Shown: positions 18,720 to 28,476 of the stretch, piece after piece
Layout of the letters: every line of letters begins with the position of its first letter
Position numbering within the stretch: position 1 is the stretch's first letter
Sequence record: OZ035751.1
Reading direction: 5' to 3' (one strand)
Source: Lambdavirus PDP110P1
Length of the DNA: 48,490 nt
The notes under the pieces: generated by a model
Database searches by the model: none
What the model was told of the DNA's origin: nothing
What the model saw: only the letters and a program-made list of their open reading frames with translations
Position numbers and translations under genes: made by a program

Positions 18720-18731
18720 TGGGCGAAATCC

Positions 18732-19088
18732 ATGAAAACAATATCTCTCAAACTTGACCCAGATACCTGGGATCTTGTCCTTGATGAGCTGGGTAATATC
18801 GCCACGGTTGAAAACCCCTACGCCTGCGCTCAGGACGTAGCGACGGCATGCCTGGCTATACGCGGCGAGTGCATTTACGAAAAAGACACCGGCGTTAATT
18901 ACAAAGAGCTGCTTAACGTTAAGGCCAGCACTGGCGCCATGGCGGCCGCGCTTCAGGTTGAAGCGTTGCGGATGAGCTATATCGCGCGAGCTGAGCCGAC
19001 GCTGATTAACAACAGCGATACGCGCCGCACTACCGGCGTTATTGCGATCGTGGATACCAACGGCCTGGATTCCAGCGTCACCCTGTGA
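18732..19088 (+). CDS. putative baseplate protein (gp25/W-like position)
   Basis: 118-aa ORF preceding the J-like baseplate gene. Confidence 0.35.
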   Translation: MKTISLKLDPDTWDLVLDELGNIATVENPYACAQDVATACLAIRGECIYEKDTGVNYKELLNVKASTGAMAAALQVEALRMSYIARAEPTLINNSDTRRTTGVIAIVDTNGLDSSVTL

Positions 19089-19095
19089 GGAAAAA

Positions 19096-20328
19096 ATGAC
19101 GACAATCTCTACGGCGGTACCGGCCGTGACCTTTTCCACCACTGGCCTTGATGTTCCGGATGAGGGAGACATTCTTGCCGGGCGTATAGCAGATATTGGT
19201 TCTGCATTCGGGACGGCGATGAGCACGAACCTCAAGACGCCACAGGGGCAACTGGCTGTCACTGATACTGCAATCATCGCAGACAAGAACGATCAGCTTC
19301 TGGCTATCGTCAACAACATGAACCCGGACTTTTCCTCCGGAAGATTTCAGGATGGCATTGGCAGGATTTACTTCCTCGATCGTATTGCTGCTGCGGGTAC
19401 GGTTGTAACGGCCACATGCTCCGGCGTACCGGGAACGGTTATTCCGGCACAGTCCTATGCAACCGACGATAACGGTTATATGTACGTGTCCCTGGCGGCC
19501 GGAACGATTGGCGCAGACGGGACGGTAAAAATTGAGTTCCAGAACCTGACTACCGGTCCGATAGCTTGCCCCATCGGTACGCTGACAAACATCTATGTCG
19601 CGGTAAGTGGCTGGTCGAGTATCACCAACGAGACCGCGGGTGTACCGGGCTCGAATGTTGAAGGGCGATCTGCATTTGAGTATCGCCGTCGCCAGTCAGT
19701 GGCACGTAACGCCTTCAACACGGCGGCGGCTGTGCGGGCTGCTGTCCTGGAAGTCGACGGGGTGCTTGATGTTTATGTGATCGACAACAAAGAGCCGACT
19801 TCCGTCGAAAAAGGTTCCACGAATTACACACTGCTGGCCAGCTCGATTTATATCGGGGTTTATGGCGGGGCAGTAGCTGAGATTGCAGCGGCCATCAATA
19901 AAAAACTCCCCCCGGGCACCGTTATGAACGGTGACACCACCGGGACCGTGCAGGATACCGAAAATTATGACGCCCCTTATCCGGAGTACACCTACAGGTG
20001 GAAAACGCTGGACGCGGTGAGTGTTCATATCAAGGTGGAATATGAGGAAAATGATGGCCTTCCGTCAGATATCAACGCGCAGATCAGAACGGTCGTCCTG
20101 AATGCCTTTACCGGCGCAGATGGAGGTACCCGGGCGCGTGCCGGCGCGCGAATTTATGGCAGCCGCTATATCGGACCCATTCAGGCGCTCGATGCACAGA
20201 ACATGAACGTTCTTTCTGTCCAGATCTCTCTGAACGGAACCACCTGGTCTAGTGCGCTGACTATGGGGATAGATCAGGAACCGACCCTCGATGCGACAAA
20301 CATCATAACGGAGGCGGTAAGTGAATAA
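19096..20328 (+). CDS. baseplate J-like protein (putative)
   Basis: ~410 aa from ATG 19096 (RBS GAGGAA); track ORF starts earlier at 19042; position before tail fibres. Confidence 0.45.
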   Translation: MTTISTAVPAVTFSTTGLDVPDEGDILAGRIADIGSAFGTAMSTNLKTPQGQLAVTDTAIIADKNDQLLAIVNNMNPDFSSGRFQDGIGRIYFLDRIAAAGTVVTATCSGVPGTVIPAQSYATDDNGYMYVSLAAGTIGADGTVKIEFQNLTTGPIACPIGTLTNIYVAVSGWSSITNETAGVPGSNVEGRSAFEYRRRQSVARNAFNTAAAVRAAVLEVDGVLDVYVIDNKEPTSVEKGSTNYTLLASSIYIGVYGGAVAEIAAAINKKLPPGTVMNGDTTGTVQDTENYDAPYPEYTYRWKTLDAVSVHIKVEYEENDGLPSDINAQIRTVVLNAFTGADGGTRARAGARIYGSRYIGPIQALDAQNMNVLSVQISLNGTTWSSALTMGIDQEPTLDATNIITEAVSE

Positions 20329-20908
20329 TGTCGACTGGACGATCTACGCGCAGTACGTGAACTCAACCAGCCTGCGGTCACTGATTGACACCTTTAACGC
20401 TTCTGTAGCGCCAGAGGACTGGATAGACACGTTCTATGACCTCGTATTCAACATCGAGACCTGTGGTGATTACGGGCTGATGTGCTGGGGTAAAATCGTT
20501 GATGTAGAGCGCTTGCTGACTGTGACGCCATCCCAGCAGTTTCTGGGGTTTGGCGAAGCGACCAGTACCCCGGCAGAACTCACCGACCCGCAACCCTTTA
20601 ACCAGGCACCTTTCTATACCGGCGTACAGGACACGAATACTGTTGTCCTGACCAATGAGGCATACCGCAAGCTGATCATGTGCAAAGCGATGGCGAACAT
20701 CAGCGACTGCACTGTACCGGTCATGAACCGCATGCTGATGTACATGTTCGGCACCAGCGGGCGGGCTTACGTGCGTGACGATGGCAACCATGTCATGAGC
20801 TACGTATTCGAATTCCAGCTTTCCGATTCTGAGCTGGCCATAGTGCAAAGCTCCGGCGCGCTTCCTTCCCCTCCCGGGGTAAAAGTTAACATCGTTCAGG
20901 AGGTCTGA
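20321..20908 (+). CDS. putative baseplate/tail-fibre attachment protein
   Basis: 195-aa ORF between J-like gene and first tail fibre. Confidence 0.35.
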   Translation: MNNVDWTIYAQYVNSTSLRSLIDTFNASVAPEDWIDTFYDLVFNIETCGDYGLMCWGKIVDVERLLTVTPSQQFLGFGEATSTPAELTDPQPFNQAPFYTGVQDTNTVVLTNEAYRKLIMCKAMANISDCTVPVMNRMLMYMFGTSGRAYVRDDGNHVMSYVFEFQLSDSELAIVQSSGALPSPPGVKVNIVQEV

Positions 20909-20909
20909 A

Positions 20910-22205
20910 TTGAATAATTCAGCCATACCGTCACGTCTGACGGTTGTCTTTTCTGTGAGCGGCGATAAAAACACGATCCCGGTCAATTCCACCTCTGAAA
21001 CGCTGGCCGACGGCCTGGCGGCTATGGATTCCGGTTTCCCGCCGCTGACCCGTATCGCACTTTCTGCCGGCGGTAAGCCGCCAAAGGGTCAGGACTTTAA
21101 CGGCATTTTTAATGATCTTTACACTCGCCTGCAATGGTCGGATGCCGGGATGGGGTACCCCTTTAACGCAGATTTCAGAACAGCCATTTCAGGCTACCCT
21201 AAAGGTGCGGTGATCCCTTCCAGCGATTACTCGGTGTCGTGGCTCAACACCATTGACTCCAATAACACCGCACCGGAAAAAACCGATGCAACGGCATCTG
21301 GCTGGATGCCTTCATGGGGATGCGGAGCGGCCAGCATTTCAATATCGACGGCTAACGTTAACGCCACCGATCTGCAGGCTGCTAACCCACGGCTAATTCT
21401 CACCGGCGCGCTAACTGGCAACCGGGTCCTTTATCTTCCGCCCTGGGTGAAAGACTGGACCATCGAAAATAACTGCACCGGCAGCGCTTACTACGTTCAG
21501 TTAAGCACCAGGGCAGCGGGCGCAACGGTTGTCAGCAAGCCAGGCACAGTTACTCAAGTCCACTCCGATGGAATCAACGTAACCTCCCTTTCTACGCCTC
21601 ATGGAAACATCGCTTACGCAGTCAACGGGACATATTCGTTCGTCGTGCCTGCAGGGGTGACGCGTATTCGTTACACCGTGACGGGTGCAGGTGGATCGGG
21701 AAGCGGTTGTCAGGCGTCCTCCTCAAGTGAGTCCTATAGCGGTGGCGGGGGCGGGGCTGGAGGCACAGCAATAGGCTGGCTGGATGTTGTTCCGGGAACG
21801 ACCTTGTCAGTTGTTGTGGGCAAAGGCGGTGCAGCGGTTTTAGGTGCCGTATCCGGCAATGACGGTGGTGACTCTTCTTTGGGTGGGATCATCTTCGGTC
21901 GCGGCGGCAAAAAAGCCAACAAGGCCAGCATCGTGAACAGCGCCGGTGGTGATGGTGGTCTTGCATCAGGTGGCGATATCAACATTCAGGGTGGTACCGG
22001 TCAGGACGGCCAGGCAGCGACAAACATGCTTACCGGTTCTGGCGGTGCTTCGTTCTGGGGTGGTGGCGGACGTAGCGGCGCAACCGGCGGTGTGAAAGGG
22101 AAAGCAGCAGGCTCTGGCGGTGGTGGTGCTTACGATATTGATTTCAGCGGAATAGCTTACCCATCCGGCGATGGCGCCGATGGCATTGTGCATATCGAGT
22201 GGTAA
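20910..22205 (+). CDS. tail fibre protein with glycine-rich C-terminal domain
   Basis: 431 aa; TTG start with GGAGG RBS; C-terminal Gly-rich domain paralogous to that of 25986-27017. Confidence 0.55.
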   Translation: MNNSAIPSRLTVVFSVSGDKNTIPVNSTSETLADGLAAMDSGFPPLTRIALSAGGKPPKGQDFNGIFNDLYTRLQWSDAGMGYPFNADFRTAISGYPKGAVIPSSDYSVSWLNTIDSNNTAPEKTDATASGWMPSWGCGAASISISTANVNATDLQAANPRLILTGALTGNRVLYLPPWVKDWTIENNCTGSAYYVQLSTRAAGATVVSKPGTVTQVHSDGINVTSLSTPHGNIAYAVNGTYSFVVPAGVTRIRYTVTGAGGSGSGCQASSSSESYSGGGGGAGGTAIGWLDVVPGTTLSVVVGKGGAAVLGAVSGNDGGDSSLGGIIFGRGGKKANKASIVNSAGGDGGLASGGDINIQGGTGQDGQAATNMLTGSGGASFWGGGGRSGATGGVKGKAAGSGGGGAYDIDFSGIAYPSGDGADGIVHIEW

Positions 22206-22219
22206 TAACAGGAAAAATT

Positions 22220-25030
22220 ATGGCGACTACCGACACACAGCAAACGGCACAGTTCGCGGCAGAGGCTGCTGTTAGTGCCGCAGAGGCGAAGCAGTACTTG
22301 ATCGAGGTCCAGCAGGGCTATCAGGACATAAGCGCCACCACTCAGGAAGCGATTAATGCAGCCACAGCGGCAGAGGCGGCGAAGATCGCCGCAGAAACTG
22401 CTGAGCAAAATTCATCTACTTCGGCCGCAGCCTCATCCGAATCGGCAACGGCAGCCGCAGGTTCAGCAGCACAGGCTGAAGAGTATGCAAATAACGCTTC
22501 TGACTACGCACAGAATAAGTTCACGTTCTATAAGACTGCCAGCGATCCTGATGGCACCATTGCAGGGTTGGCAGCAACTACTGACGGCCAGTCGTTCTGG
22601 GTAGCTCAGGGGCCAGATGCGCTTTCTGCTGCATGGCAGTATCAAAACAATGCTGGCGTGGCCGTATTGCAGGCAAAGCAGCCAGGCACGGCAGCCATAA
22701 CCGGGACAATCCGCGAATTCCCCACGCTGGAGGCGGCACAGGATGATGCCGATGCCGGCAATATTCCTACAGGTTCAACTGCGTATTATCGAAGCGCTGA
22801 CGACGAAACTCTTGCGATTGAGGTTATTAACACTTCAGGAACGCTGCAGCCTACTGGACGAAAAATGCCATCCGCAATGCCAATGGGTTACCAGTCTGCT
22901 ACAGCTGTGAGTAGCGGTGCGGCTAATACCATTGCTATCACTATCCCCGGATTATTAGTGGATGGCAGTTTGATTTATTTCCTGTCTCCTATTTTGAATA
23001 CGGCGGCTGTTAGCGTTACCGTGACAGATGCCAGGGGGAACTCGGTTACTCGGGCAATACAGAAACAAAATAATGCAGCTTTAGTTGGGAATGAGTTGCT
23101 TCTCAATCAGCCCGCACTGATGGAATTCCGCACTGGGACTGCTAACAATTTTGTCCTTGTGGCATCCGGCCCAGTAGCTGCTGAACTTGCGTCAAGAATT
23201 TCCACGCTTGAATTAAATAGCGTAGCGTTATTGTCTGGCGTTGCTAATACTGCGGACGCCTACACCGCGTCAGCGTCAGCGATACCAGGCCTGGTTGCCT
23301 CTGACCGCGTTTTCCTTTTCACTCCGAGTGCGACGAACACGACACGGACGCCGACCTTATCCGTGAATGGCGGCACTGCGCGCCAGATCAAACAGGCGAA
23401 TGGTACCAACGTCGCAGCGGGAGACCTGGTCTCTGGCTACCCTTATTTATTAAAATTCAATTTTGCATCGGCTGACTTTCGTATGCTCACATACCCAGCG
23501 GACCGGACGCGTCTGCTCAGCGGCCAGCAGAAGGCCACCGTAACCAGTGACGCAACAAGCCCGAACGCTATATCTTTAACAATCCCGGGCCTTATCGCGG
23601 ACGGCACACAAATCACATTCGAGCCAGCTGTCACCAATACCGGGGCGGTGACGCTGCTAATCACCAACATGTATGGCGACACCGTGACTCGCACCCTGAT
23701 GAAAGGGGCTAACACTCCTCTCGTCGGTGGTGAACTGAAGTACGCCATGCCGGTTTCTATCATGTTCAGGGGGGCTCCACAGAACAACTTTAAGCTCCTA
23801 TATGCTGGCGACCCTACCACGGATATACAGACCCTATCGAACGACGTTACGACGCTCAAGGGGTCGCTGACAGACCCTTATGCTGCTCTGGCGGATAAAC
23901 TCGTGGGCACCGGGGTATTATCAGACCAGTCACCATTCGGTACTATAACTTGGTCCGCGGGGGTTAAGAGCGTCACTAAGCGGCAGATCATTTGTACGTC
24001 TGTCGGGTCTTCTGTTGGCGTTGGGGCCGGCTCTACTGGCGGTGGTGCGGCAGGTGCCGCTTATGCACCGAACACACTGTTCGTCAACGCCTTGAAGGAA
24101 GAGCTTAAACAGTACGGCGAGTTTGACGTCATCGATGACAACCAGTGCATACCAACTCAGGCGATTCAGCAGTTCGCTGCCCAGCTAGCGAATTCGCCTT
24201 ATTCAACCTCCGACTTTGTTTTGATTGTAGGGGGGATGAATGATGCGCCAGTTGGTAACTTCAACATGGGGCGCACATTCCCCGGTCAACAAACGTCTCT
24301 CGAGTCGCTGGTAGACTTGTGTCTGGCACGAGGAGCGATTCCAATCATTTGCACTACTCCACATCATAATGTGGAAATGTCTCAGACGTACCCCACAATC
24401 CCCGGTGGTAACCCGCTGTTCTGGCCGTTCAGGACATATAATGTCACAAGTACATATGTCTTCGACGCCGTTGCAAATACCATCACGCAGAGTAACTTTG
24501 CTAACCCGAATTATGGCGGCAATATTCTGAAGCCGGGGCATACTCTGCGCGTAGAAAGTGGAGACAATATCGGCAACTATACTATCACGGCCATTTCCTC
24601 TGACCGGAATACCATAACCGTCCAAGAGACAATCCCGGTAAGTGGAAGCTACTCGACAACGGTCAGACACTTTAACCTGCAGTCCATCGCTGAGGATATT
24701 CTTTACCCTGCACCGTCGGTTTCCTTTGTAACAAAAGACTGGTCCGGTAGCGGCGTTAAGGTACAGGGAGATGTGCGGTTCGAAATGGTGAATAATATGC
24801 AAAGGGTCGTCGCACGCAAAAAAGGCGCGTTCCTCGCAGACTGTGAAAAGTCGTTCTTTAAGTATGGTGTAGAGGTTGGTGGTTACTCGTCGGTATATAA
24901 CGTCCCAGCTGGAAACTACAATCACATGAACGATAACGGGTACACAGTAACTTTCGACTACACGCTGAAAGTCGCAGCAAGGAAGATTGCCAATCTCATA
25001 TTCGGAGATAAATATTACTCTGCAGCATAA
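22220..25030 (+). CDS. tail fibre/tailspike with SGNH/GDSL-hydrolase-like domain
   Basis: ~936 aa from ATG 22220; Ala-rich coiled-coil N-terminus typical of fibres; GDSL-like segment (…ICTSVGSSVG…LIVGGMNDA…). Confidence 0.5.
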   Translation: MATTDTQQTAQFAAEAAVSAAEAKQYLIEVQQGYQDISATTQEAINAATAAEAAKIAAETAEQNSSTSAAASSESATAAAGSAAQAEEYANNASDYAQNKFTFYKTASDPDGTIAGLAATTDGQSFWVAQGPDALSAAWQYQNNAGVAVLQAKQPGTAAITGTIREFPTLEAAQDDADAGNIPTGSTAYYRSADDETLAIEVINTSGTLQPTGRKMPSAMPMGYQSATAVSSGAANTIAITIPGLLVDGSLIYFLSPILNTAAVSVTVTDARGNSVTRAIQKQNNAALVGNELLLNQPALMEFRTGTANNFVLVASGPVAAELASRISTLELNSVALLSGVANTADAYTASASAIPGLVASDRVFLFTPSATNTTRTPTLSVNGGTARQIKQANGTNVAAGDLVSGYPYLLKFNFASADFRMLTYPADRTRLLSGQQKATVTSDATSPNAISLTIPGLIADGTQITFEPAVTNTGAVTLLITNMYGDTVTRTLMKGANTPLVGGELKYAMPVSIMFRGAPQNNFKLLYAGDPTTDIQTLSNDVTTLKGSLTDPYAALADKLVGTGVLSDQSPFGTITWSAGVKSVTKRQIICTSVGSSVGVGAGSTGGGAAGAAYAPNTLFVNALKEELKQYGEFDVIDDNQCIPTQAIQQFAAQLANSPYSTSDFVLIVGGMNDAPVGNFNMGRTFPGQQTSLESLVDLCLARGAIPIICTTPHHNVEMSQTYPTIPGGNPLFWPFRTYNVTSTYVFDAVANTITQSNFANPNYGGNILKPGHTLRVESGDNIGNYTITAISSDRNTITVQETIPVSGSYSTTVRHFNLQSIAEDILYPAPSVSFVTKDWSGSGVKVQGDVRFEMVNNMQRVVARKKGAFLADCEKSFFKYGVEVGGYSSVYNVPAGNYNHMNDNGYTVTFDYTLKVAARKIANLIFGDKYYSAA

Positions 25031-25417
25031 GGAATTATCATGGCTTTTAAAATTTCAGCAGTAAAACTGTCCAGATTTATTATCTCGGAGGATTTCTGTG
25101 TGAAAAGGATATCGGTATTGACCTCATTTACTCAGTAGAAAGCGTCAGGCAGGATGATGCAGGTCAAGTTAAAGCCTCAGTATCTGTTCGATATAATGAT
25201 GCGTCCAGAGTTAACGCTGGAGAGTATGCGGTAACTCTGGACACTTCGTCATCAAAACCGTGGACAGAACAGGCTGAGCAGCAACTTATGCAAGCTGAAG
25301 AGTTTGCTGGGGCAGTTGTCCTGTAACCACAAAAAAAACCTACGCAGACTGAACTGGGTTGACTGCCCTCCGATAAAACTACTGTATATAACAACAGTGT
25401 TTATCGGAGGGCAGATC

Positions 25418-25657
25418 ATGCTTCGACAGTCAGACATCGCCGCGGCTTTCCGCGAGTCCATTTTGCGCAGTTCCAAGGGGTTCCAGTACCTCCACACCCG
25501 CGACTTCGTTACCGCGCTTCGCCGGCGTGGCATCCATTTTTCCGAGGTGGAGGCGAACTCCTGGATCGCACGCGAGCAGACGTATTTCGTCGATAAGACG
25601 CCGGACCATAGCGAAAACAGGCTGTGGATGATGGCCAACATGGGGAGGGTGATCTAA
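25418..25657 (+). CDS. hypothetical protein
   Basis: 79 aa from ATG 25418; its RBS GGAGG lies in the 3' arm of a 15-bp perfect hairpin. Confidence 0.4.
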   Translation: MLRQSDIAAAFRESILRSSKGFQYLHTRDFVTALRRRGIHFSEVEANSWIAREQTYFVDKTPDHSENRLWMMANMGRVI

Positions 25658-25974
25658 TGGGATTCCCTTCACCAGCGACGGACTACGTTGAGCAAAGGTT
25701 GTCTGTTAACTCGATCTGCAATGTCGGCCCAAACACGCTAGTTTTCGAGCGATCTGGCGGTTACGTTGTGCTGGATATCTCCCTGAAGCCAAAGCAGGGT
25801 AGTCAGGTTCTTATCCAGCACGGCGGCGGGACGGAGCTTGCCACGCTGAGAGGAAAGTCACTGATTACTGAAGATGGTGAAGCGATCGAGGGCGAAGCCC
25901 TGGACGATGTTACTGTCATCGGCGTCGTGACGTTTACTATCTGCGATGTTCGTTCCGATAATTCTATTATTTAA
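25657..25974 (+). CDS. hypothetical protein
   Basis: 105 aa; RBS GGGGAGGG; TAATG overlap with upstream gene; directly upstream of third tail fibre. Confidence 0.4.
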   Translation: MGFPSPATDYVEQRLSVNSICNVGPNTLVFERSGGYVVLDISLKPKQGSQVLIQHGGGTELATLRGKSLITEDGEAIEGEALDDVTVIGVVTFTICDVRSDNSII

Positions 25975-25985
25975 CTGGGGTATAT

Positions 25986-27017
25986 ATGGCGCTGAAGCTA
26001 TTAGCCAATAATAACGCAAAGAGTGTTCTCGCTGCGGGTATTAGCGCGTCCGCTACCGTTATTACCGTGGGTACTGGAGCTGGGTCTTTATTCCCGTCCC
26101 CTGTATCTGGGCAGAGTTATTTCAAATTAACGATAACCGACGCGGCCACGAAAACAATTTCTGAAATTATGCACGTCACGTCTGTATCCGGTGACGTGAT
26201 GACAGTAATTCGTGGTCAGGAAGGAACTACGGCACGCGTATGGTCAACGAATGACATTGTCGCGAATTTAATGACCGCCGGATCATTGTTGTCGTTCCTG
26301 CAGATCAGCAATAACCTGTCAGAAATTAAAGATGCCGGTGAGGATGCGATAAATGAAGCCCGTTATAACCTCGGAATATCTGATTCCTCTGGTTTTGTCG
26401 GGCGTTCACTTGGCGCTCCAAAAGCTTTCTATGCAAACGGAACCTATACGCGATCTCCTCTGGCCCGTTATGCAAAAGTAACGTTGACCGGTGCCGGTGG
26501 CGGCGGTGGCGGCTGCCAGGCCTCCAACAATACAGAAACCTTCTCCGGTGCTGGCGGCGGCGCGGGCGCGACCATTATCGTATGGGTTGACCTGTCTGCT
26601 GCCAGTTCTTATGCGATTACTGTCGGCAAGGGTGGTAAGGGCGGAGTTGGCGCAGTAAGTGGTGCGGATGGTGGGGCCACCTCGTTTGCCAGCCTGTTCT
26701 CAGCTCCTGGCGGGAAAGGAGGAGTGAAGTCAGGCGTGTCCAATACCGCCGGCGGCGCCGGAGGTACGGCGGCGACCGGAGATATCAGGATCAACGGTGG
26801 TACCGGCTCAGATGGACAGACAGGCTCAAGCCTTCTGACGGGCAACGGCGGGGCGTCGTATTTTGGCGGCGGTGGCCGGGCGGGTTCTCAGGCCGGTATT
26901 GCTGGCGCAGCTCCCGGATCCGGTGGTGGTGGCGCGTATGACCTTGGGTTTACCGGTACGGCATTTACCGGTGGTGATGGTGCTACTGGCATGGCGATCG
27001 TGGAAGAATTCGCGTAA
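25986..27017 (+). CDS. tail fibre protein with glycine-rich C-terminal domain
   Basis: 343 aa; C-terminal ~170 aa paralogous to C-terminus of 20910-22205. Confidence 0.55.
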   Translation: MALKLLANNNAKSVLAAGISASATVITVGTGAGSLFPSPVSGQSYFKLTITDAATKTISEIMHVTSVSGDVMTVIRGQEGTTARVWSTNDIVANLMTAGSLLSFLQISNNLSEIKDAGEDAINEARYNLGISDSSGFVGRSLGAPKAFYANGTYTRSPLARYAKVTLTGAGGGGGGCQASNNTETFSGAGGGAGATIIVWVDLSAASSYAITVGKGGKGGVGAVSGADGGATSFASLFSAPGGKGGVKSGVSNTAGGAGGTAATGDIRINGGTGSDGQTGSSLLTGNGGASYFGGGGRAGSQAGIAGAAPGSGGGGAYDLGFTGTAFTGGDGATGMAIVEEFA

Positions 27018-27159
27018 TGGCTTACACTCCTGCACGACCATCGATGTAATCAGCCCACCACTGCATCATCTACCTGCGCTTATCGAGATACTGAGCATGG
27101 TTGTAAATTCAACTAACCCAGTGCATTGACAAAAAATTAGCGCAAGAAGACAAAAAATC

Positions 27160-27420
27160 ACCTTGCGCTAATGCTCTGTTACAGGTCACTAATACCATCT
27201 AAGTGGTTGATTCATAGTGACTGGATATGTTGTGTTTTGTAGTATTATGCAGTCTATTATTTAGACTAAATCTTTCATAACATATTGATATTTACAGTGT
27301 TTTCTGTTTATTGTTCAGCTTTTTTATACTAAGTTGGCATTATAAAAAAGCATTGCTTATCAATTTGTTGCAACGAACAGGTCACTATCAGTCAAAATAA
27401 AATCATTATTTGATTTCAAT
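27160..27420. other. attP: attP (lambda-type; core 27318-27332)
   Basis: lambda core GCTTTTTTATACTAA with flanking lambda arm sequence (…ACAGGTCACTA…), adjacent to int. Confidence 0.85.
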
Positions 27421-28476
27421 TTTGTCCCACTCCCTGCCTCTGTCATCACGATACTGTGATGCCATGGTGTCCGACTTATGCCCGAGAAGATGTTGAGCAA
27501 ATTTATCGCTTATCTGCTTCTCATAGAGTCTTGCAGACAAACTGCGCAACTCGTGAAAGGTTGGCGGATCCCCTTCGAAGGAGAGACCTGATGCTTTTCG
27601 TGCGCGCATAAAATACCTTGATACTGTGCCGGATGAAAGCGGTTCACGACGAGTAGATGCAATTATGGTTTCTCCGCCAAGAATCTTTTTGCATTTATCA
27701 AGTGTTTCCTTCATTGATATCCCGAGAGCATCAACATGCAATGTTGTTGGGATAGCAATTTTTACGCCTGTTTTGCTTTGCTCGACATAAAGATATCCAT
27801 CTACGATATCAGACCACTTCATTTCGCATAAATCACCAACTCGCTGCCCGGTAACAACAGCCAGTTCCATTGCAAGTCTAAGCCAACATGGTGATGATTC
27901 TGCTGCTTGATAAATTTTCAGGTATTCGTCAGCCGTAAGTCTTGATCTCCTTACCTCTGATTTTGCAGCGCGAGTGGCTGCGACCGGGTTTGTTGTTATA
28001 TGGCCTTCAGCTATAGCCTCTCGGAATGCATCGCTCAGTGTTGATCTGATTAACTTGGCTGATGCCGCCTTGCCCTCGTCTATGTATCCATTGAGCATTG
28101 CCGCAATTTCTTTTGTGGTGATGTCTTCAAGTGGAGCATCAGGCAGACCCCTCCTTATTGCTTTAATTTTGCTCATGTAATTTATGAGTGTCTTCTGCTT
28201 GATTCCTCTGCTGGCCAGGATTTTTTCGTAGCGATCAAGCCATGAATGTAACGTAACGGAATTATCACTGTTGATTCTCGCTGTCAGAGGCTTGTGTTTG
28301 TGTCCTGAAAATAACTCAATGTTGGCCTGTATAGCTTCAGTGATTGCGATTCGCCTGTCTCGGCCTAATCCAAACTCTTTACCCGTCCTTGGGTCCCTGT
28401 AGCAGTAATATCCATTGTTTCTTATATAAAGGTTAGGTGGTAAATCCCGGCGCTCATGACTTCGCCTTCTTCCCAT
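27406..28476 (-). CDS. int: integrase (lambda Int, tyrosine recombinase)
   Basis: 356-aa protein MGRRRSHERRDLPPNLYIRNNGYYCYRDPRTGKEF…, recognised as lambda Int. Confidence 0.95.
   Translation of the reverse strand: MGRRRSHERRDLPPNLYIRNNGYYCYRDPRTGKEFGLGRDRRIAITEAIQANIELFSGHKHKPLTARINSDNSVTLHSWLDRYEKILASRGIKQKTLINYMSKIKAIRRGLPDAPLEDITTKEIAAMLNGYIDEGKAASAKLIRSTLSDAFREAIAEGHITTNPVAATRAAKSEVRRSRLTADEYLKIYQAAESSPCWLRLAMELAVVTGQRVGDLCEMKWSDIVDGYLYVEQSKTGVKIAIPTTLHVDALGISMKETLDKCKKILGGETIIASTRREPLSSGTVSRYFMRARKASGLSFEGDPPTFHELRSLSARLYEKQISDKFAQHLLGHKSDTMASQYRDDRGREWDKIEIK

Follow-up and report, generated by a model that had tools for sequence, protein, structure and literature searches.

Two tail fibres of Lambdavirus PDP110P1 with a common TNF-like/glycine-rich C-terminal domain

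Lambdavirus PDP110P1 (sequence record OZ035751.1; 48,490 nucleotides (nt), the whole of which is called the window here) is a temperate, contractile-tailed phage. Two of its genes, which we named fibre A and fibre B, end in homologous glycine-rich domains. Judged by homology, both are tail fibres with the known Pam3 gp24-type TNF-like/glycine-rich (TG) tip of Pfam family PF21722 (Gly_rich_2), and not fibres of a new kind. Taken as a whole, the locus quite probably has two independently acquired receptor-binding tips of different specificity, which flank an esterase spike. The two genes and their domains are located as follows.

20910..22205, + strand: fibre A, open reading frame of 431 amino acids (aa) with a TTG start; phrog_12796 tail fibre, E 9e-177
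21612..22202, + strand: TG domain A, fibre A aa 235-431; TNF-like beta-sandwich with glycine-rich loops
25986..27017, + strand: fibre B, 343 aa; final gene before the phage attachment site (attP)
26424..27014, + strand: TG domain B, fibre B aa 147-343

Homology and identity of the two TG domains

The two proteins were compared at the protein and the nucleotide level. Residues 235-430 of fibre A and 147-340 of fibre B were aligned by BLASTP with 100 of 196 positions identical (51%), 2 gaps and an E value of 4e-19 under compositional adjustment. A reading made earlier from the letters of the window (the sequence-only reading) had described the last ~170 aa as homologous; the homology stood, but because the alignment covers these residues the block is ~197 aa long. 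The N-terminal parts, which it had taken to differ, gave a Smith-Waterman score of 33 compared with 33 ± 5 for shuffled sequences, i.e. they are unrelated.

The Smith-Waterman score of the two C-terminal domains was 535, compared with 116 ± 12 in 500 shuffles of the same composition (z = 34). A similarity of composition only, as between two glycine-rich low-complexity tails without positional homology, fits the 29% glycine of both regions and the suppression of nearly all hits by the BLAST low-complexity filter. It does not fit this score, nor an E value reached despite compositional adjustment, nor the 48 of 59 glycines of each copy that are in register, nor the 52 identical residues among the 129 columns without glycine in either copy (40%), nor the identical confident fold predicted for both copies. 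We give it next to no chance, and the doubt that the sequence-only reading had raised on this point falls away.

Both C-termini scored above the PF21722 threshold of 24.3 bits (52.0 and 52.5 bits) and spanned 223 and 218 of its 226 model positions, and both matched several tail-fibre PHROGs. A profile of homologues matched Pam3 gp24 across the entire domain including the last strand (E 5e-8), and a Foldseek search concurred with this identification. Structure prediction, which had been proposed as a check, gave the same confident fold for both domains, namely the TNF-like beta-sandwich with extended pairs of glycine-rich strands that characterizes PF21722 and Pam3. The AlphaFold2 model of fibre A had a mean predicted local distance difference test score of 91; both fibres were predicted as monomers. 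Both domains run to the stop codon and thus lie distally on proteins that have a virion anchor at the N-terminus. Single-sequence phmmer against the PDB sequences missed Pam3 for both fibres, so profile and fold searches were needed. Likewise, when the TG domains were searched by tblastn in the phage collection, the near-identical phage was the sole hit, since the domain is masked by the low-complexity filter; the search was thus of no use for a survey of phages with two TG fibres.

Searched against 1.84 billion proteins, a profile built from both window copies matched 4,358 representative clusters at E <= 0.001. The TG domain is nearly always C-terminal, in proteins of 220-1,400 aa, and this is also true of the 150 best representatives. 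Two exceptions, P0344 (1078 aa) and P0423 (2243 aa), have two or three TG stretches which are not C-terminal (e.g. aa 468-656 and 449-662). Column entropy was calculated for 144 non-redundant TG domains: the glycine columns are near-invariant and the segments between the glycines highly variable. Where columns are conserved the window copies agree, and their differences fall in variable columns (mean entropy 1.60 versus 2.49 bits, p 1e-8). Since they differ mainly at the hypervariable positions of the family, tips A and B would most likely bind different receptors or receptor variants.

Like gp24, the tail fibre of cyanophage Pam3, which has an alpha-helical anchor followed by a TNF-like and glycine-rich domain and which resembles S16 gp38 and ALK (PMC9608196), both window fibres consist of an N-terminal anchoring part and a TG tip. 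Fibre A has a baseplate-proximal scaffold (aa 1-~230), with tail-fibre PHROG matches along the whole length of the protein, and fibre B has an N-terminal anchor (aa ~7-108) and a short helical neck. Pam3 gp24 docks on the peripheral wedge protein gp23 (PMC9942802). The gene of fibre A is immediately downstream of those for baseplate J and the wedge protein (DUF2612/Phage_Wedge1), and therefore its position is equivalent to that of Pam3 gp24. Sequence identity between Pam3 gp24 (PDB 7YPX, 7YFW) and the window fibres is 23-27%. The anchors differ, being alpha-helical in Pam3 gp24, a globular/beta scaffold of ~230 aa in fibre A and GP4-like in fibre B. Furthermore, Pam3 has one fibre type with an adjacent gp25, whereas the window has two TG fibres and an esterase spike, with no gp25/Tfa-like neighbour recognised.

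In Klebsiella phage SCNJ1-Y, the Pam3-like fibre TFP_Y is reported to recognise lipopolysaccharide and trigger DNA ejection, and its host-adaptation mutations lie in the glycine-rich domain (PMC12671077, 2025). TFP_Y is likened to the window fibres by description, and the receptor assignment for the latter is an extrapolation. Together with the homology to Pam3 gp24, these mutations (PMC12671077) make a receptor-binding module, as the sequence-only reading had suggested, the best reading of the shared domain. Salmonella phage S16 gp38 (PDB 6F45, a polyglycine-II sandwich) has been grouped with Pam3 gp24 among the glycine-rich receptor-binding tips in which the glycine stem is conserved and the distal loops vary (PMC9608196, PMC13243192). 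ALK/LTK's TNF-like plus glycine-rich (TG/GRD) ligand-binding domain (PDB 7LIR, 7NX3, 7LS0) belongs to animal receptor tyrosine kinases; a sub-part of it aligns at 20-23% identity, and Pfam PF12810 (ALK/LTK glycine-rich) gave no match at E <= 0.01. ALK/LTK are structural relatives and not members of the same family. The tail-tip proteins gp33 ('tail wing brush') and gp29 of mycobacteriophage Bxb1 (PDB 9D93) come from a siphophage with an actinobacterial host, and the carrier proteins are others; we do not take gp33's function as settled.

The sequence-only reading had also offered an intramolecular chaperone as the role of the shared module. The module would then be a chaperone or an aid to trimerisation that is removed after folding, and not a receptor-binding tip. 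Neither Peptidase_S74 (PF13884), in the Pfam scan of either protein, nor any other chaperone was matched in Pfam, PHROGs and NCBIfam. The C-terminal strand is an integral strand of the fold, and the whole domain including this strand aligns with Pam3 chains 7ypx and 7yfw as far as the last residues of the solved fibre. C-terminal chaperone domains are frequent on fibres and spikes, and no separate chaperone gene was recognised at the locus, which would suit a built-in one; however, Pam3 employs the separate chaperone gp25, and in the publication that describes the gp24-gp25 complex the TNF-like/glycine-rich domains are given the role of recognising the receptor. A chaperone of this kind is thus very improbable, and we retain the receptor-binding tip.

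Origin of the two copies and exchange of tips

The TG domains are in direct orientation, ~4.8 kb apart. The features between and behind them are as follows.

22199..25030, + strand: SGNH/GDSL esterase tail-spike-like protein, between the two fibres; open reading frame from GTG 22199
25363..25414, + strand: regulatory region, perfect 15-bp inverted repeat (I6) flanking a LexA/SOS box
25418..25657, + strand: 79-aa protein; phrog_3893; always upstream of the UmuD'-like gene
25657..25974, + strand: UmuD'/HumD-like, S24-like protein of 105 aa; phrog_3469, E 1.5e-46
27318..27332, + strand: attP core, GCTTTTTTATACTAA, identical to that of phage lambda; end of the late/fibre region
27406-28476, - strand: lambda-like int gene

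It had been suggested that the two copies act as recombination substrates which excise or exchange the gene between them. Aligned in frame, the domains have a nucleotide identity of 54%, with 29% at third codon positions (saturated), and the same codon is used at 32 of the 100 identical residues. The longest exact run common to both copies is 15 nt and is out of register, so that non-homologous positions are paired. RecA-/Red-type recombination needs far more homology than this. No hybrid TG domain was flagged among 112 homologues on scaffolds A and B. Variants do exist in related genomes, as the check for deletions and exchanges showed, but none of the relatives had a TG-to-TG deletion or chimera. 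Their joints are at 22298-22778, 25372, 25960/27001 and 26334/26973, outside the TG domains or at their flanks. In Klebsiella phage RCIP0114, window positions 25960-27001 are replaced by 168 nt and fibre B is precisely missing. In phage Chronis, the tip of fibre B is replaced between 26334 and 26973, the flanks of the exchange being the conserved scaffold and the last ~45 nt with the downstream sequence. Several genomes switch at 25372. The substrates of exchange are conserved flanks, and the suggestion made for the TG domains themselves was not upheld.

The same data bear on whether the TG regions are a segmental duplication whose direct repeats delete or exchange the esterase, 79-aa and UmuD'-like genes. 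The orientation and spacing of the two regions, their homology at the protein level and the clear exchange of fibre tips within this phage group would agree with such a duplication. However, the saturated third positions, the low in-frame and codon identity and the out-of-register run do not, and among the 112 homologues there was no A-scaffold protein with a B-like TG segment or the reverse. The joints of the relatives are never TG-to-TG, and TG domain B is closer to domains elsewhere than to TG domain A. We consider the duplication highly unlikely. Variation of the tips by a diversity-generating retroelement, an invertible (G/C) segment or a shufflon was also rejected. Such systems have near-identical DNA repeats, either inverted crossover sites or TR/VR pairs of ~90% identity; there are none here, the copies being direct and 54% identical, and no invertase or reverse transcriptase is listed in the RefSeq annotation of the identical prophage.

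Relatives of TG domain B on other scaffolds have 55-67% identity, and TG domain A, at 51%, ranks only 25th. For TG domain A, none was closer than ~53-55% beyond its own orthologues and the 73%-identical P0198 on the same scaffold. The two genes also lie in blocks that match different phages. Klebsiella phage ST899-OXA48phi17.1, a carrier of fibre A without the fibre B cassette, matches positions 18728-22297 at 95.9% identity, and positions 22778-27600 are 99.7% identical to Wanchaivirus PDP110P2, which has a different, Mu-like baseplate and its own TG fibre of 299 aa. Because the mosaic joint between these two segments lies between the two TG genes, the genes arrived with different parental segments. 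We conclude that the copies are, by their sequences, old and independently acquired homologues and not a recent duplication within this genome. The 299-aa fibre of PDP110P2 (L003 4529-5428), encoded after the Mu-like baseplate genes, has an alpha-helical N-terminus followed by TG and is very like Pam3 gp24. As PDP110P2 has both this fibre and fibre B, the presence of two TG fibres in one genome is seen again on another backbone.

Of the homologues fetched, those on scaffold A had a TG tip in 72 cases and another tip in 39, and those on scaffold B had TG in 40 cases and lacked it in 55; a further 95 TG domains are on other scaffolds, P2-like fibres included. The alternative tips common to both scaffolds are collar (PF07484) and gp53-like (PF21882). 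A Klebsiella prophage (L009) has the exact layout of the window, but there fibre A ends in a collar tip and fibre B in a gp53-like one, and another prophage (L010), with a different baseplate and no fibre A, has a collar tip on fibre B. Two TG tips in one genome are one outcome of such combinatorial tip swapping.

Setting of the fibre genes and the place of fibre B

With 100% identity, the window corresponds to a prophage at att-lambda (ybhB/bioA side) of E. coli 20KM2222, of which it is the phage form; the prophage junction in this strain adjoins ybhB/bioA. The contractile tail is indicated by a DUF3383 protein homologous to the E217 sheath (E 1.6e-22), and the DUF2612 protein has homologues among the wedge/triplex proteins of the solved baseplate entries 7kh1, 8env and 9b45. 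The order of the cluster is baseplate J, wedge (DUF2612), fibre A, SGNH esterase spike, 79-aa gene, UmuD'-like 105-aa gene, fibre B and attP. In the RefSeq annotation of the identical prophage, fibre A has the identical start and is labelled 'hypothetical'; relatives are named 'glycine-rich domain-containing protein'. Fibre B of E. coli 20KM2222 is annotated in RefSeq as 272 aa from Met72 (L001 9200-10018), which cuts into the conserved N-terminal anchor. The full 343-aa form is present in other genomes and in 797 cluster members.

Annotated relatives of the esterase spike start at ATG 22220. The protein matched Pfam Lipase_GDSL_2 with an E value of 1e-5, which is below the cut-off; its N-terminus has tail-fibre PHROG matches, and the RefSeq names of relatives agree with the assignment as a spike. 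No solved relative was found by sequence search. The open reading frame is intact in the window (943 aa), and the identical prophage copy is a partial pseudogene in RefSeq. The gene is chimeric, as the match to ST899-OXA48phi17.1 extends to 22297 and that to PDP110P2 (99.7%) begins at 22778. The joint lies in a segment of ~55 aa (aa ~172-227) which matches many PHROG families and is conserved among many spikes. After the esterase gene, at 25040-25327, a small reading frame is split over two frames (MAFKISAVKLSRFIISEDF... then ...CEKDIGIDLIYSVESVRQDDAGQVKA...AGAVVL*); it may be a small gene with a frameshift and lies inside the block 99.7% identical to PDP110P2.

Further downstream there is a perfect LexA box, TACTGTATATAACAACAG (TACTGT-N8-ACAG), at 25380-25397 (25380-25398 counting the following T), in the loop of the inverted repeat. 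It is unique in the window (0.04 expected) and is kept in 7 related loci, always equally far from the start codon and preceded by a -35-like TTGACT/TTGATC. The 3' arm of the inverted repeat contains the Shine-Dalgarno sequence of the 79-aa gene, and a mosaic module boundary lies at 25372. In the consensus fold of the hairpin, only 4 of 25 pairs showed compensatory changes, many pairs were broken and the covariation term was unfavourable. Because this covariation support is weak, a hairpin that sequesters the ribosome-binding site is not established. A scan of 24800-27500 for consensus promoters and terminators gave nothing above shuffle expectation and missed the LexA-box region.

The UmuD'-like protein scored 48 bits with NCBIfam HumD, below the cut-off of 120, and its relatives are named S24/S26 family peptidase in RefSeq. 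It begins at the position of the UmuD cleavage product and has GGYV at what we take to be the catalytic GDSM of E. coli UmuD, so that it seems to be without the catalytic serine. There is no umuC-like gene near it. The 79-aa and UmuD'-like pair always directly precedes fibre B, and RCIP0114 retains the two genes but lacks fibre B. As the start of fibre B is 12 nt after the UmuD'-like gene, fibre B may be co-transcribed from an SOS-regulated promoter. The arrangement suggests that the 79-aa, UmuD'-like and possibly fibre B genes are an SOS-regulated unit.

Fibre B could on these grounds be something other than a virion fibre, either an accessory (moron-like) protein made together with the 79-aa and UmuD'-like proteins under a LexA-controlled promoter, for instance when the lysogen is SOS-induced, or an orphan fibre without a docking site on this baseplate. 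The LexA box and -35-like element upstream of the 79-aa gene, conserved in 7 loci, would fit this, as would the start 12 nt past the UmuD'-like stop codon in the last gene before attP, the clean absence from RCIP0114 and the origin of the cassette, from 22778 on, in a phage with a different baseplate. However, the anchor of fibre B (25986-26310) is homologous to the virion-bound N-terminus of the tail fibre of Ralstonia phage GP4 (a podophage; PDB 8JOV) and to the N-terminus of the esterase spike of other prophages (57% over 101 aa). In relatives scaffold B bears the classical collar and gp53-like fibre tips, and an independent Klebsiella prophage has it together with the J/wedge1/fibre A baseplate, which speaks for a function on such a baseplate. 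A protein outside the virion is thus unlikely, and we regard fibre B as a probable virion fibre. Virion-fibre status is homology-based for both proteins, and for the 343-aa protein we infer it.

The spikes with the fibre B anchor are those of E. coli 98193-type prophages and Chronis (L007/L008 4162-4464). As this anchor is found on fibre B and on esterase spikes, one and the same anchor serves several kinds of receptor-binding protein, on three or more types of baseplate. Full-text literature searches for PF21722/Gly_rich_2 and 8JOV gave no results, and the papers mentioning Wanchaivirus contained no fibre biology for that genus.

Proposed host-recognition set and its significance

The unrelated N-terminal scaffolds of fibres A and B would anchor them in the virion, and both fibres end in the TG module, a TNF-like beta-sandwich whose paired glycine-rich strands extend into a lattice. 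In solved structures the module forms the distal tip that binds the receptor. The lattice would be the constant stem, with the variable contact surface made up of short loops between the glycine strands. Each scaffold takes its tip from a common pool (TG, collar, gp53-like) by recombination in the conserved flanks, and the present genome just happens to have TG on both. The two fibre specificities and the esterase spike would then be a three-component host-recognition set. Phages with several receptor-binding proteins that combine an esterase spike and a fibre include G7C (gp63.1/gp66) and CBA120 (TSP1-4). SGNH spikes are known in prophages of this phage group (PMC12115436).

Several points weigh against this proposal. 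No gp25/Tfa-like chaperone gene was found beside either fibre in Pfam, PHROGs and NCBIfam, and Pam3 gp24 requires gp25. This missing neighbour is a feature of Pam3 and not of PF21722, and the membership of the two domains is unaffected. Fibre B sits after the SOS-box region and the UmuD'-like gene and not within the baseplate gene block; as it is precisely absent from RCIP0114 it is dispensable, and it might not be structural in this mosaic. Different specificity is deduced solely from sequence divergence, and as both fibres were modelled as monomers, trimerisation and docking are putative. Receptor binding, the trimeric state, the different specificities and the incorporation of fibre B are accordingly put forward as what we infer from homologues.

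A further and rather doubtful idea starts from the 79-aa, UmuD'-like and fibre B genes as a conserved three-gene unit, behind a LexA box whose inverted repeat could sequester the ribosome-binding site of the 79-aa gene. Fibre B or its assembly would then be under host SOS control, or the UmuD'-like and 79-aa proteins would have been co-opted as assembly or attachment factors; we rate this as a little less likely even than an accessory role of fibre B. If true, these two proteins would replace the missing Tfa-type chaperone and fibre B would travel as a self-contained cassette between unrelated baseplates.

The analysis revealed no new mechanism, and the idea of recombination between the TG copies is unsupported. 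What is gained is first of all annotation, as both genes can now be named tail fibres whose receptor-binding tip is of the TNF-like/glycine-rich Pam3 gp24 type. The locus also illustrates cleanly how tips are exchanged in combination, with two unrelated scaffolds, three tip types and joints that can be mapped, and it is of use for host-range prediction and fibre engineering in temperate phages of E. coli and Klebsiella.

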